From assembly GCA_964016885.1 (NCBI GenBank), contig OZ024745.1, positions 128,650,001 to 128,714,000 of the forward strand: a stretch of 64,000 bases of DNA. The letters are read 5' to 3'. The notes under the pieces were generated by a model. The model saw only the letters and a list, made by a program, of their open reading frames with translations. It was not told where the DNA came from and did no database searches. The position numbers and the translations under genes are program-made. Source of the DNA: Eledone cirrhosa (taxonomy: Eukaryota). Below are positions 9,710-50,336 of this stretch, one piece after another. Each line of letters starts with the position of its first letter. Within the stretch, counting starts at the first letter, position 1.

Positions 9710-9910
9710 TATTAAAATAACAGATTAAAGTTTAAGCAAAGAATCGCTGCTTTCACCCTTAACGGGATCTTCTGAAAGCAGCGATTCTTTGCTTAAACTT
9801 TAATCTGTTATTTTAATAAATATTTGCTCTACGGTTCTTATATATTTGATATATATTTATCCTTATCCAGCCCTCTTTGGATTTTAGTCTTCAAATTTAT
9901 TATTATTACT
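9710..9910 (+). mobile_element. Family G element with perfect 46-bp inverted repeat
   Basis: Arms 9710-9755 and 9773-9818 with a 17-nt spacer. GAAA-GCA-gcgattctt-TGC-UU is helix-III-like. The tail ctctacggttcttatatatttgat...gccctctttggattt recurs at 48615-48705. Confidence 0.7.
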
Positions 9911-10063
9911 ATATATATATGCAAAAGTTCTATTTATAAATATAGTTTCCATTTATTTAATATCGTATATATATATATATATTTGAATACAAGCAATAAC
10001 AGGAAAAGTAGAACTACATAATTGATGGTATTAATAATTTCTTTTATTTGCCTCATTAATAAT

Positions 10064-10535
10064 AATTACCCAGTACATTACTGGTACTTTATTTTATCGA
10101 CCCCGTAAGGATGATGCAAGGCTAACCTCGGCGGGATTAATAATAATAATTGTTTGTACATTTAGCACAAGGCAGCCTGCAATTTGAAGGGAAGGGGAAA
10201 GTCGATTAAATCGACCCCAGTGCATTACTGGTGCTTTATTTTGTGGGCCCCTTAAGGATGAAAGGCAAAGCTAACCTCGGCGGGATTAATAAAAAATAAT
10301 GATTTTTTTTTGTCTTTATTGACCTACCACATAGGGGACAATACAAACAGACAGGCGATAATAACTGTTTCTACTTTTGGCACAAGGCCATCAATTACCC
10401 AGTGTATTACTGGTACTTTATTTTATCGACCCCATAAGGATGAAAGGCAAAGTTAACCTCGGCGGGATTTGAACTCAGAATGGCAAGGGCCATAACTCTA
10501 TACGCATGGCGTCCGACCCTCTACCGATAGGCGAT
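10064..10535 (-). mobile_element. Cluster of three partial SINE copies
   Basis: Three repeats of ccagt.cattactggt.ctttattttatcgacccc.taaggatg.aaggc.aag.taacctcggcggga. Confidence 0.8.
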
Positions 10536-11390
10536 AATAATGGTAATTGTTTTTATACTTAACGAAGGTTTCGTATATATTATAGTAGATAGATAGATAG
10601 ATAGACAGATAGACAGACATATAAAGCAGATATATACATAGAGTGAGAACAAGGAGATAGATAGATAGATATCTTTCTTTATTTGCCACAAGGGCGTACA
10701 AGAGACATTACAAGACGTCGCGGTGGGGGTTTTACATATAGATAGATAGACAAATGGATAGATGTATAGACAAGAGACAAGACGGGCAAGATAGATAGTT
10801 AAATTTAAAAATAAAATAACCTGATCGGGAGGAAGATACATATGAGGGTAGTTGGTAAAAACCAACCAGAGAATGGGCGAGGGTCGGTTCACGAAAGAGA
10901 GACACTACAAAAAGAATCGGAACGAAATAGTGCAGACAACGCGGAAAAATGAGAATTGAATAGTCATCATAAATATTGAACTGATCGGGTTATTCAGTAC
11001 ACTGTCGCTTGATATATTGGTGGGTACGTACTTTAGTGGTGAATGTGTTTGTCACGGTGGAAAGAGAGAGAGGGAATGAATGGATTCATATATAAATACA
11101 TTAGTCACAGATAGAGATATAAAGAAGATAAGATTGACAAAGAGATAGATGAGGTAGGCAAGTAGATAGACGGGTAGATGAATAGACAGACGAAGGTGTG
11201 TTCGTGTCTGTGTCTGTACATATATAGGTGTGTATGTGTGTGTGTAAGTATACATAGGTGTGTATGTGTATGGATATATAATGCTGATTTAAGCAGAACT
11301 AAATCTATCAATTTATTCACATTAAACATTGAATATTCATCATATTGGGGACTGTGGTTACAGTAGAGAGGGAAAAGGAGAGGGTGGAAG

Positions 11391-12057
11391 GAGAGACAAG
11401 GAAAAGATGAGAATGGAAAGAGAGACAAGGAAAAGATGAGAATGGAAAGAGAGACAAGGAAAAGATGGGAATGGAAAGAGAGACAAGGAAAAGATGGGAA
11501 TGGAAAGAGAGACAAGGAAAAGATGGGAATGGAAAGAGAGACAAGGAAAAGATGGGAATGGAAAGAGAGACAAGGAAAAGATGGGAATGGAAAGAGAGAC
11601 AAGGAAAAGATGAGAATGGAAAGAGAGACAAGGAAAAGATGAGAATGGAAAGAGAGACAAGGAAAAGATGAGAATGGAAAGAGAGACAAGGAAAAGATGA
11701 GAATGGAAAGAGAGACAAGGAAAAGATGAGAATGGAAAGAGAGACAAGGAAAAGATGAGAATGGAAAGAGAGACAAGGAAAAGATGAGAATGGAAAGAGA
11801 GACAAGGAAAAGATGAGAATGGAAAGAGAGACAAGGAAAAAATGAGAATGGTAAGAGAGACAAGGAAAAAATGAGAATGGTAAGAGAGACAAGGAAAAAA
11901 TGAGAATGGAAAGAGAGACAAGGAAAAGATGAGAATGGTAAGAGAGACAAGGAAAAAATGAGAATGGAAAGAGAGACAAGGAAAAAATGAGAATGGAAAG
12001 AGAGACAAGGAAAAAATGAGAATGGAAAGAGAGACAAGGAAAAAATGAGAATGGAAG
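11391..12057. repeat. 29-bp purine-rich minisatellite, about 23 copies (gagagacaaggaaaagatgagaatggaaa)
   Basis: Directly visible tandem array. Confidence 0.95.
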
Positions 12058-12179
12058 GAGAAAAAAAAAGAGAGACATATATAAACTTTCTATAGCCAGC
12101 ACTACAAAAACATCACTTTCTGAGAGTCTATCGCAATCGCTCGGGCTGCTAATAATTAACAGTAGCCATAAAAACATAC

Positions 12180-12254
12180 TACCGAAACGTGATGGTCATG
12201 TTTGGAGCGATTTTGATGAGAGGTTTGCAGGCATCGCGACACATAAGAGTTAAA
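12180..12254 (-). CDS. Candidate 75-nt internal exon (phase 2-2: C-LTLMCRDACKPLIKIAPNMTITFR-Y)
   Basis: Minus-strand acceptor gttgttcttacag| and donor |GTATGT. Length is divisible by 3. It is open in the frame that continues the phase-2 donor at 30926, whereas the phase-1 join gives an immediate TAA. No recognised homology. Confidence 0.3.
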
Positions 12255-13169
12255 CTGTAAGAACAACTAGCAGAGGCATTACTGTGACCACTGCAAAGGT
12301 TTCAACATTAAGTACTGACTACACACATCTAGACATGTGTGAGTAGAGTAGAGAAGACAGGGACACACGGACACATCCACTGCATCTCATTCACTCTGAC
12401 AAGTGCACATGCATTCGATGCTAGGCAACGGTGTGAAAAGAGAAACACTTCGATGAATTTTCACACACACTATAAAGAGGTTTATATAGTGATTGGTTTT
12501 GGTTTTAATACGAACACATCTACATACATACTTGTGTAAGAGTGTACTCACAACGAATAACTATATCTCACCCCATTTTACTCCCTACCTATCAACGTTT
12601 GGCTCCCAAATAACAGAGAAGGGGTTTTGAAATAAGCGGGAGCAGTTGGGGGAAAAAAAACTCTGAAAAATTAATAAGCGGGGATAGATGAAAATATTAT
12701 CTGTAGATATTATTTCGTCGATAAAATAAAAATATCAGTAATACACTGGGTAGGTGCTGGCCTTGTGCCAAAAGTAGAAACAATTATTTTGTCAAGAACA
12801 TGCCGAAATCTAGAGACAGACATACACACAGGCGTTAAAAGAAATATATATATAGCAACAAAAGAACTGTTGCTCTAAGCATTTAACAACGTATGTATGT
12901 AGATTTGCTTGCGGATTCTCTGAAACGTATGTATAGTTTAAGCTGACACTTATGTGTGGTATATAATAAATATTTTTAAAAAAGGTGATTTAGCTTAGAA
13001 ACACTCGCACATTGAGTGAGTGTTTAATGTTAACCGAAGCAGAACTACACTTTATATCTTCACTGGCCTCTCCTACACCACAGCACCTAACCGACATCCG
13101 CTAACACGTCAGCCAAAGCTATATATATATATATATATATATATATATATATATATATAATATATATAT

Positions 13170-48410: not shown

Positions 48411-48561
48411 GATCCTGGGTTAAAACGGGGGGTAACCACTGTTAATAAGGTACTCAATACATTAGTGGAGTGAAAACATCATATTTAATATAGAAATAAC
48501 TTCTACAAGACTAGAACATTTTCCTACGAATGAACCGGTTCTAGTCCTGTAGCAGCCATTT
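48411..48561 (-). mobile_element. Family B element with short inverted arm
   Basis: ggtaaccactgttaataaggtactcaatac...cttctacaagactagaac...gttctagtcctgtagcagccatt, homologous to 35601-35727. A further fragment lies at about 29495-29560. Confidence 0.6.
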
Positions 48562-48832
48562 ATATATATATATATATATATATATATATATATATATATA
48601 TATATATATATATATTAATTTATTCTCTACGGTTCTTATATATTTGATATATATTTTCCTTATCGAGCCCTCTTTGGATTTTAATCTTCAATTTTATTAT
48701 TATTACTATATGTATATATATATGTATATATATATATATATATATATATATATATATACACATACAATTTAGTTTCAGGCATAGTTGTATATAGATATGT
48801 ATTGGAATATATATATATATATATATATATAT

Positions 48833-49013
48833 AAATTGCCTTGTCTGATGAACGAATGCGGACGTGTCTTGTATTCGTCTTATTCGGGAAACCTCTGGTA
48901 ACGAGGTAATTATACTGTATTGTTTATTATACATTAAATATTTAGCTCTGTAACTTACATAGAGCACTCTTCATTCCTCTGACCTTTTCAATTTTCAACG
49001 AAAACTTCAATAC
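48833..49013 (+). mobile_element. Family C hammerhead-bearing element in (TA)n
   Basis: CTGATGA 48845-51. Hairpin acgaatgc...gtattcgt. GAAA 48888-91. Helix III CCTC-tggtaac-GAGG, then UA. Tail gctct...agagcactct is shared with the copies at 34914 and about 9130. Confidence 0.7.
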
Positions 49014-49429
49014 CTATATATATATATATATACCTATATATATATATATATATATATATATATATATATATATATAATATATATATATATATATATGTGT
49101 GTGTGTGTGTGTGTGTGTATATATATTGAGAGAGAGAGAGAGATGTACCCATATACGGTATGTATGATTATCTATATAAGGTAGATGGACATTATGTGGG
49201 TACAAAGTTGTAAAACTAGATAGGGGGGGGGGGTGATTGAATTAAGACACGCCTGGTACCGCAGTTGAAAGGCCAGCCATGTAGGCAGTAAGGGTTTGAA
49301 CCTGAAATGTATTGAGCAATAGTTGTAGCTAACACTAATACAGTTAGACAAATTGGAAAGGAAAACTATTTCTAACAGATGGCATATAGTTGGCTTCATC
49401 GAAGAAGTGTATGCCTGGCTTTGAGGAAT

Positions 49430-49765
49430 ATTGTCTTCTTATTCCAGCGGGACCCGTCAGATGCAACCGCCTCCAACTGATCCAGCTGGATCCCCAAGCG
49501 AGACCAGCCAAGTTCATGGATGTTATCCAACCATCTTGCTCAAGGTTTGCCTCTGGGTCTCCCGTCGCTTGGTTTGGCCCATAAAATCTGTCTAGCGATT
49601 CTTTCCGGAGGCATTCTAACCCTAACCACACGTCCATTGTATCGGAGCTGTGATCTCCCAATTCGTAAAAGTAACAGGTCTACTTGGAGTGACTCTCTGA
49701 TCTCCAAGCTACGCACTTTATCGAGTAACGTTACTCCGCGGAGGAAACACATCTCGGTCATTACC
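49430..49765 (-). pseudogene. RTE-clade (Rex3/Expander-like) LINE ORF 3' end fragment
   Basis: TEMCFLRGVTLLDKVRSLEIRESLQVDLLLLRIGRSQLRYNGRVVRVRMPPERIARQILWAKPSDGRPRGKP matches the post-RT EM.FLR...QLRW.GH..RM...RPRGRP pattern, with an internal stop. Confidence 0.8.
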
Positions 49766-50127
49766 CAAGATCAATGACCGGAGGTAAAGGTTGGCACCAA
49801 TACCGAATATTGTACCTCGAAATTGCACCATGAAATAAAATACCGTTAGATATTTTGACTGATGCTCACACCTACCACCACCTAGCATAGTTGAGTTCGA
49901 ATCCCGCCGAGGTCAACTTTGCCTTTCATCCATTTGAGGCCGAGAAAAAAAGGGTAATCAGACAAGAGTTCTTGACCCTGTGCTAATCAGGCGAAACTCC
50001 AGAGCAACAAGACTCACTATTCAGCTGTAATAAATGAACACACACACACACACACACACACACACACACACACACACACATATATATATATATATATATA
50101 TATATATATATATATATATATATATAT

Positions 50128-50336
50128 AAAACAAAGAAAGTGTGGTAAGGAACCAGGTGGACCATAACGCACCAGAGTACTCGATACTTAGGATAGTAGA
50201 GTGGGTAATAGGAAAAGAGTCAAGACCCCCCGACGGCTGAGCTCCGGCCGTTTCGACAGCTAGTTCCGAACAGTTCGGATCTAGCTGTCGAAACGGCCGG
50301 AACTCAGCCGTCGGGGGGTCTTGACTCTTTTCCTAT
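50128..50336 (-). mobile_element. Family A element with 63-bp inverted repeat
   Basis: Arms 50208-50270 and 50274-50336 (2 mismatches, 3-nt loop). Same tail as 26933-27011, in reverse. (TA)n flanks. Confidence 0.8.

Follow-up and report, generated by a model that had tools for sequence, protein, structure and literature searches.

A stretch of 64,000 nucleotides from Eledone cirrhosa (contig OZ024745.1, positions 128650001-128714000, genome 3.0 Gb; hereafter the window, in which 200 bases are N) contains five palindromes lying beside hammerhead ribozyme motifs, and the question is what kind of DNA they are and how their inverted arms are made. The inverted repeats have arms of 46, 55, 47, 63, and 32 bp (starting at 9710, 26817, 34792, 50208, and 14967) with 0, 1, 0, 2, and 3 mismatches, as a preliminary description of this DNA had reported, and an identical scan finds no inverted repeats of such kind in 10 of 10 block-shuffled windows. 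Each palindrome begins in (TA)n, and four bear a unique one-sided tail of 75-90 nt. We identify them as short insertions of Penelope-like elements into (TA)n, with three of the four families belonging to the Hydra clade. The preliminary description was right that they are hammerhead-bearing Penelope-like ends and that the inversion arises during insertion. The feature is real and the element class is known; the mechanism first proposed, in which a single nascent complementary DNA (cDNA) stops at or snaps back on hammerhead helix II and primes itself, is largely wrong. Its replacement is well supported but inferred from DNA: the palindromes probably arise when twin target-primed reverse transcription takes place close to the 5' end of a likely capped RNA. 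The five insertions are built as follows (window coordinates; the putative start is the likely transcription start described below, and z and x are the values recorded for a locus).

9710..9909, plus strand: family A insertion; inverted arm 9710-9777, ending 2 nt before the putative start; sense arm from 9773; tail 9819-9909; 5-nt microhomology at 9773-9777; (TA)n on both flanks (locus L038: z -46, x -68).
14958..15050, plus strand: family D insertion that lacks a tail; inverted arm 14958-14998, followed from the family 5' boundary at 14999 by the sense piece; degenerate core 15012-15018; GAAA 15031-15034.
26817..27010, plus strand: family B1 insertion; inverted arm 26817-26871; sense piece beginning exactly on the putative start A at 26872; catalytic GAAA 26890-26893; tail 26933-27010 (locus L091: z -61, x -55, blunt).
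34792..34985, plus strand: family C insertion; inverted arm 34792-34838; GAAA 34861-34864; tail 34909-34985; 4-nt microhomology at 34835-34838; junction away from the start site (locus L061: z -74, x -47).
50129..50336, minus strand: family B2 insertion; tail 50129-50207; perfect palindrome centred on a single nucleotide (50272); inverted cDNA end on the putative start base, sense end one base short (locus L151: z -62, x -63, blunt).

The symmetry axis had been placed in or next to helix II, just 5' of the GAAA motif. This holds loosely, as the distance from the axis to the catalytic GAAA is 10 nt at 9710, 11 nt at 34792, 15 nt at 26817, 18 nt at 50208, and 22 nt at 14967. In the 26817 palindrome, the GAAA adjoining the axis (26878) belongs to the 3' strand of helix II, and the catalytic one lies 12 nt further on. 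In the 14967 palindrome, the axis is located 5' of the CUGANGA half, which is retained. Replacement of this 5' core half by the inverted arm, another element of the earlier account, is seen at 26817, 34792, and 50208, where the half is missing, but not at 9710, where it sits inverted in the loop (9768-9774). A comparison of 34792-34987 with 48833-49013 does show the same family with and without the inversion.

Long copies of these families extend upstream into a 3' untranslated region and a GIY-YIG endonuclease. Locus L280 contains a complete family C unit, composed of a repeat, a 704-aa reverse transcriptase-endonuclease frame, and a second repeat, with the repeats 3.7 kb apart. Family C therefore has the open reading frame (ORF) with reverse transcriptase and GIY-YIG between pseudo-long terminal repeats (pLTRs) that defines endonuclease-bearing (EN+) Penelope-like elements. 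The order within L280 is hammerhead, site 1, tail, site 2, about 120 nt, and ORF; with this order, a transcript of the upstream repeat would have both sites near its 5' end. In families A and B, endonuclease fragments are joined to the same 3' region. The motifs RWK, DKT, CxCX5C, CxxC, and CxH without CCHH, together with (TA)n insertion, are diagnostic of the Hydra clade (Craig et al. 2021, PMC8557442). In family C (L280 and L281) all five motifs are present and CCHH is absent, whereas L282 (family B) and L284 (family A) have only the endonuclease motifs of this set; 98 of 113 inverted arms adjoin TA repeats. By these motifs and their (TA)n targets, families A, B, and C are assigned to the Hydra clade. 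Family D, for which no ORF was found, is grouped with the others solely by its shared tail motif and structure. With the family C ORF, Pfam searches returned no match and PDB searches were blank or weak; its Atlas neighbours at 0.96-0.99 are unnamed animal proteins, GIY-YIG and RVT_1 clusters among them.

The elements share with the Hydra clade the C-terminal GIY-YIG domain, the RWK and DKT motifs, the CxCX5C linker, CxxC, CxH, and the lack of CCHH, as well as hammerheads, (TA)n targets, inverted 5'-truncated copies, and tails (PMC8557442). In that report the clade has few families outside cnidarians and tails of 30-40 bp; here there are five families with tails of 70-90 nt, and 19 tail-bearing copies, 12 of them with an inverted arm, in 60 evenly spaced 10-kb stretches (600 kb). 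This corresponds to roughly 95,000 tail-bearing copies genome-wide, about 60,000 of them with an inverted arm, as a lower bound.

Three other assignments were rejected. The Neptune clade, our first assignment, and likewise Nematis require a CX2-5CxxC linker and CCHH within the GIY-YIG core, whereas the GIY-YIG core of L280 is without cysteines and its linker is CxCX5C. A miniature inverted-repeat transposable element (MITE) does not fit arms that are internal to the tail, overlap by 0 to >200 nt, and have variable junctions. Non-LTR retrozymes, the subject of a preprint dealing with tandem units (10.64898/2026.07.22.740005), do not fit copies that are dispersed, single or head-to-head, and the tandems seen here are 3.7-kb coding units.

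The shape of the insertions was defined on copies selected by their tails, of which 196 of 200 were kept (three segmental duplicates and one copy short of flank were dropped); a copy set from an arm-including query, which is biased, and one further set were excluded from the distribution counts. Junction calls were automated, and a few are wrong. An inverted arm is present in 122 of the 196 copies, consistent with the inverted 5'-truncated form with optional tail typical of Penelope-like elements, the tail lying between two fixed ends. The outer end of the arm is located at site 1 in 105 of these 122 copies and at site 2, the tail end, in 5. The axis, by contrast, varies in position, arm overlaps run from 0 to >200 nt, and some arms exceed 700 nt. 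This is the reverse of the expected pattern of variable arm length around a fixed axis. Junctions are indeed far from uniform, but their peak is not helix II: the axis falls within it in 2/27 (A), 21/29 (B1), 22/30 (B2), 3/9 (C), and 7/27 (D) copies, which leaves 12 of 63 axes for A, C, and D. In 64 of the 122 copies it is the inverted arm that extends further upstream, in 33 the sense arm, and in 25 neither.

The cDNA ends instead pile up on one base per family, located at -70 (A), -61 (B1), -63 (B2), -105 (C), and -55 (D) from the tail. These modal positions were picked from the same data as the counts, which comprise tail-selected and bystander copies. Among ends lying within 25 nt, those within 2 nt of the modal base number 14/37 in A, 41/95 in B1, 32/65 in B2, and 7/13 in C. 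Ends upstream are far fewer than ends downstream (3 versus 20 in A, 11 versus 43 in B1, 1 versus 32 in B2), and in family D, scored by motif, 11 of 40 copies stop at this base and 2 pass it. In A and D, the modal base opens helix I; in C, it immediately precedes that helix; and in B, it falls within the helix II loop.

Several signs suggest that this base is a transcription start. The spacing rule between TATA box and start and the initiator consensus were used as start criteria. In family D, a TATA lies 30 nt upstream in two subfamilies with differing spacers (9 arms, one scored 29), and all 5 long copies of family B1 have a TATTTA 30-31 nt before the base. The starts of A, B1, and B2 are the A of TTAGTY, an initiator-like motif. 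In addition, ends on the modal base have a G before them in 15 of 25 cases, at a position where the parent carries T, compared with 28 of 165 at other ends (p 1.4e-5), counting only ends not supplied by the other arm; tail-selected copies alone give 9/16 versus 17/98. Family D was left out of this test because subfamily indels make its strict end calls unreliable. The extra base is found in both arms of L094, L303, L017, L117, and the held-out L333, with one spacer base in two of these. An extra G marks capped full-length L1 copies (PMC11702581), and the promoter of the D. virilis Penelope is established within its pLTR (PMC2377424). Taken together, the extra G, the TATA spacing, and the initiator-like motif make the modal base look like a transcription start, and hence the putative 5' end of a capped RNA.

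Predictions fixed beforehand were examined in two new tail searches (families A and C2, 30 of 40 places each, the query copy dropped). The outer ends are again at site 1 in 7/8 (A) and 11/11 (C2) copies, and ends lie within 2 nt of the predicted base in 6/11 (A, p 2.6e-4) and 8/15 (C2, p 2.9e-5). A G precedes the exact base in 4/4 ends, versus 6/21 elsewhere (p 0.017). A first round of end calling had produced false ends at subfamily polymorphisms and showed no excess of G (3/7 versus 29/46), and the calling was redone by the earlier method. The held-out test supports the reading of the modal base as a transcription start.

Short-read contigs of four runs, aligned to the B1 parent, show the same boundary; this check covers B1, and the runs may share the sample of the window. 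In run X1, the summed depth climbs by a factor of about 16 from bin 6720 to bin 6760, with the start A at 6748, a step that comes partly from subfamily divergence. Of the opposite-strand joints listed, 7 of 8 have one side at 6743-6751, and the loose ends listed form two clusters, one at 6748-6749 and one, accompanied by TA repeats, at site 1 (6808). For family B1, the contigs argue against an assembly artefact.

The order of the parent element is promoter region, hammerhead, site 1, tail of 70-90 nt, site 2, and the ORF of the next unit, and the inserts have one end at site 2 and an inverted end at site 1. The proposed enzyme, probably a dimer, would nick both target strands and prime one cDNA per strand on sense RNA, at site 1 and at site 2. 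On the 5' repeat copy of the RNA, both cDNAs would reach arm lengths of 55-105 nt and halt at the RNA 5' end or short of it, often copying the cap as an extra C. End-joining of the two cDNA 3' ends, with or without microhomology, would then yield arm, arm, and tail, with either arm longer, and long copies would result from priming on a downstream repeat. In LTR retroelements, priming near the RNA 5' end yields a short cap-bounded cDNA, the minus-strand strong-stop DNA. The proposed product resembles it, except that the primer would be nicked target DNA rather than a tRNA, and integration would be direct, without transfer. We lean towards a Penelope-like strong-stop DNA in this full form, with a dimer priming both strands at two fixed 5'-repeat sites of a capped sense RNA, run-off at the cap, and head-to-head joining. 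The ribozyme would matter only by its position, as it is involved because it sits between the start site and site 1.

The joins are in line with two separate DNA ends. Among 59 joins without inserts, at least 2 nt are shared in 28, compared with about 10 expected. Microhomology joins would imply a hairpin loop of <3 nt in 13 of 42 cases, and 9 of 17 blunt joins have a spacer of ≤2 nt; such loops and spacers require two DNA ends. At 22 of the 174 junctions, the sense piece begins in the tail or no more than 6 nt from site 1, which would fit a site-2 cDNA that halted where the site-1 cDNA began. Inserts were scored in 114 of the 174 junctions, a figure inflated by divergence from the reference.

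Some of these observations would also suit a single cDNA, or an antisense RNA as considered for rotifer elements, that folds back near the RNA end and primes itself, with the endonuclease later cutting at site 1. Self-priming has already been proposed for such palindromes, in the Adineta vaga Penelope elements (Arkhipova et al. 2013, PMC3846280), which share head-to-head inverted pLTRs, palindromic junctions, and an optional tail and were read there as self-priming on an antisense template. In our data, 20 of 43 microhomology joins imply a foldable loop of 3-30 nt, and a partial sense piece beside the axis, followed by a jump to the tail, occurs in L093, L117, L164, and L138. A lone fold-back cDNA, however, would give only copies whose sense arm reaches further, so the 64 copies with the longer inverted arm speak against it. 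The loops and spacers too short to fold and the long inverted arms joined directly to the tail in L042, L104, L111, and L183 point the same way, and the extra G indicates the 5' end of a sense RNA. Fold-back as the general origin is unlikely, and snap-back may complete a share of the joins. Two cDNAs from sense RNA are favoured because both junction orientations, loops of <3 nt, and the extra G are found.

A variant accepts two cDNAs but explains the pile-up by an RNA end that carries no cap, by a splice boundary, or by an obstacle at the ribozyme's 5' edge, the G being non-templated. In its favour, helix I begins exactly at the boundary in A, D, and D-long and one base after it in C, most boundaries contain AG, and the D. 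virilis intron ends at the helix I 5' end (PMC4209133). The family B boundary, on the other hand, lies within the helix II loop and not at a structural edge. Before the G, the copies have no upstream exon in common, no GAG-GT donor occurs in the parent stretch examined, and ends peak on A rather than after AG. There is also no pile-up at the ribozyme cut, and the TATA spacing suits a start, which together make this variant improbable.

The mechanism of the preliminary description, stalling or snap-back on helix II itself, draws on the axes of family B, 43 of 59 of which are in helix II, on 8 of 11 midpoints in held-out C2, and on the 9710 junction, which uses the basal 5-nt stem of the family A hairpin. 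In family B, the putative start lies inside a 56-nt helix II region, and even there, 79 and 59 ends crowd into the final 20 nt, as against 13 and 1 in the initial 36 nt. Moreover, the low share of helix II axes in A, C, and D recurs in held-out A (0/8), the outer end rather than the axis is fixed, and neither the longer inverted arms nor the extra G and TATA spacing are predicted. We regard snap-back on helix II as quite improbable. Fixed MITE-like masters amplifying as palindromes, an alternative that the preliminary description itself had named, are very improbable: a B2 junction centred on 1 nt is shared by about eight copies but occurs in both centre-base orientations, junctions and overlaps vary, and sense arms continue into parents that encode endonuclease. 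Long-read data are known to contain artefactual palindromes, but fold-back assembly chimeras can practically be dismissed, as outer ends are fixed at an element site and adjoin TA repeats, the arms differ by copy-specific changes, and opposite-strand joints recur at this position in contigs from other runs.

Several points weigh against twin priming from a capped 5' end. The transcription start is deduced from DNA alone, and the tail searches took the best 40 copies per family out of 51-1502 candidates, which favours young copies. In family C, upstream and downstream ends are equal (3 versus 3), and 27 of 40 copies run far past the start. As the start coincides with the helix I 5' edge in A, C, and D, a structural stop could act there. 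A TATA at -30 was not found in A, B2, or C, and 7 of the 25 ends have a C before the start, for which we have no explanation. In the held-out set, the excess of G over the 2-nt window is not significant (5/10 versus 6/21, p 0.22), and the C2 midpoints concentrate in helix II as stated, with 6 of 33 actual ends there. Some junctions carry templated inserts compatible with snap-back, perhaps from a repair step. Finally, the two strands showed no difference in start site when an anole element was assayed in vitro (PMC11167929), so the pairing of site 1 with site 2 is unexplained by that work.

By explicit pairing, all six parents have a type I hammerhead topology, with helix I of 4-11 bp and helix III of 3-5 bp. 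Helix II folds in families A, B, and C and does not fold on its own in D. The core is canonical in C and D, has U3-A8 in B, a known core variant (PMC4209133), and U4A in A (C-A-G-A-A-G-A). Rfam scans gave no hammerhead among the matches listed, only microRNA matches driven by microsatellites, and the ribozyme calls therefore depend on pairing rather than on a profile. Ends at the predicted cut number 1/15, 3/16, 1/18, and 0/6; the missing pile-up says only that cut RNA is not the usual template. In the family B parent (L283:6690-6790), the putative start and a TATA-like box are both within the helix II region, so a 5'-repeat transcript would have only half of the ribozyme. Metazoan Penelope-like hammerheads, as described by Cervera and De la Pena (2014, PMC4209133), are likewise type I motifs in pLTRs, with U3-A8, many solo truncated copies, and dual motifs 100-700 bp apart on opposite strands. 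The helix III length, the family A core, and the putative start inside the ribozyme of family B distinguish the present elements.

Inverted arms, tails, and two priming sites are all published. The closest biochemical system is the anole element PAc Poseidon (Frangieh et al. 2024, PMC11167929), in which both target strands are cut and extended in vitro at an AT-rich target, priming occurs at two internal tail-bounding sites, the RNA template is uncleaved, and a dimer is predicted. The ORF of PAc Poseidon starts in stem II, whereas here it starts downstream of site 2, and no account of inverted copies, a transcription start, or a cap-derived G was found in the accessible parts of that report. 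LINE-1 twin priming also uses a second primer on the other target strand to produce an inversion, with microhomology joins and an extra G at full-length 5' ends (PMC11702581); there, the second priming site is variable and the cDNAs barely overlap, whereas here both sites are fixed and the overlap gives palindromes. Cap-bounded run-off or twin priming for Penelope-like elements was not found in searches of an open-access library; older reviews, subscription papers, and supplements may bear on it.

Further copies of the same families are present in the window.

14112..14259, plus strand: family B copy; inverted arm to the putative start and one extra C (14172; extra G in the sense direction); join just before the tail; x -61.
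20794..20976, plus strand: older family D palindrome, arm match 20 bp.
34074..34220, plus strand: family D copy without inversion, beginning a few nt 5' of the core.
35601..35725, minus strand: family D copy without long inverted arm.
48413..48560, minus strand: family D palindrome with short overlap, not in the earlier list.
48616..48700, plus strand: family A tail-only copy.
48834..49014, plus strand: family C2 copy without inversion; 5' end on the putative start; hammerhead core complete.
51427..51576, minus strand: family B2 copy; inverted arm reaching the start base; after a few sense bases, the sequence skips to the tail (x -63, z -2).

Elsewhere in the genome, L036, L049, L072, and L150 are long palindromic insertions with arms of about 350 to >700 nt, some split by later insertions of short interspersed elements (SINEs). 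A motif RCTC ... GAGY, followed by ACTCT-like letters, lies 5-11 nt 3' of site 1 in families B1, B2, C, and D (27/37, 29/39, 40/40, and 39/40) and in 0/40 copies of family A by the strict pattern. It is repeated 3' of site 2 (L041, L181, L109, L063, L066, L084, L190), and its outer pair alternates between A-T and G-C across families. This motif may be an RNA element that positions priming, and terminal copies would be without it for site 2.

TA-flanked repeats at 14527-14742, 41723-41875, 43070-43243, 50749-51058, and 62735-62833, some with CUGANGA...GAAA, are probably more Penelope-like families. A 98-bp repeat (99% identity) occurs in opposite orientations between TA tracts at 6665-6807 and 36249-36366. 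An abundant dispersed SINE-like family is found at 4292-4462, 10064-10529, 20393-20566, 23602-23796, 42245-42442, 44260-44860, and 47917-48102, and a head-to-head pair of it (44362-44552) forms a 79-bp inverted repeat. Tandem arrays at 16039-18128, 52515-59251, 11371-12061, and 27440-27849 have units of 41, 37, 29, and 70 bp. The palindromes also score as microRNA precursors under the curated cut-off (mir-1305 with 51.7 bits at 50239-50304 of the window; mir-3913 with 71.2 bits at L041:637-736), and some 60,000 such hairpins, a rough figure, could be mistaken for microRNA precursors during annotation.

How inverted structures form in Penelope-like elements was named an open question by Craig et al., who ascribed the tails to endonuclease resolution and left the origin of the inverted structures open (PMC8557442), and self-priming on antisense RNA is the published guess. 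The copies described here offer a different, directly testable answer, one that ties genome structure to the in vitro findings of 2024. If it is true, the template would be settled as sense RNA, the inverted pLTR would be explained without self-priming, and tens of thousands of mini-palindromes would record the transcription start of each family to the base, so that junction maps would yield the transcription starts of any such family from DNA alone. One family would then start transcription inside its ribozyme and three at the ribozyme 5' edge, which would bear on the purpose of the ribozyme.

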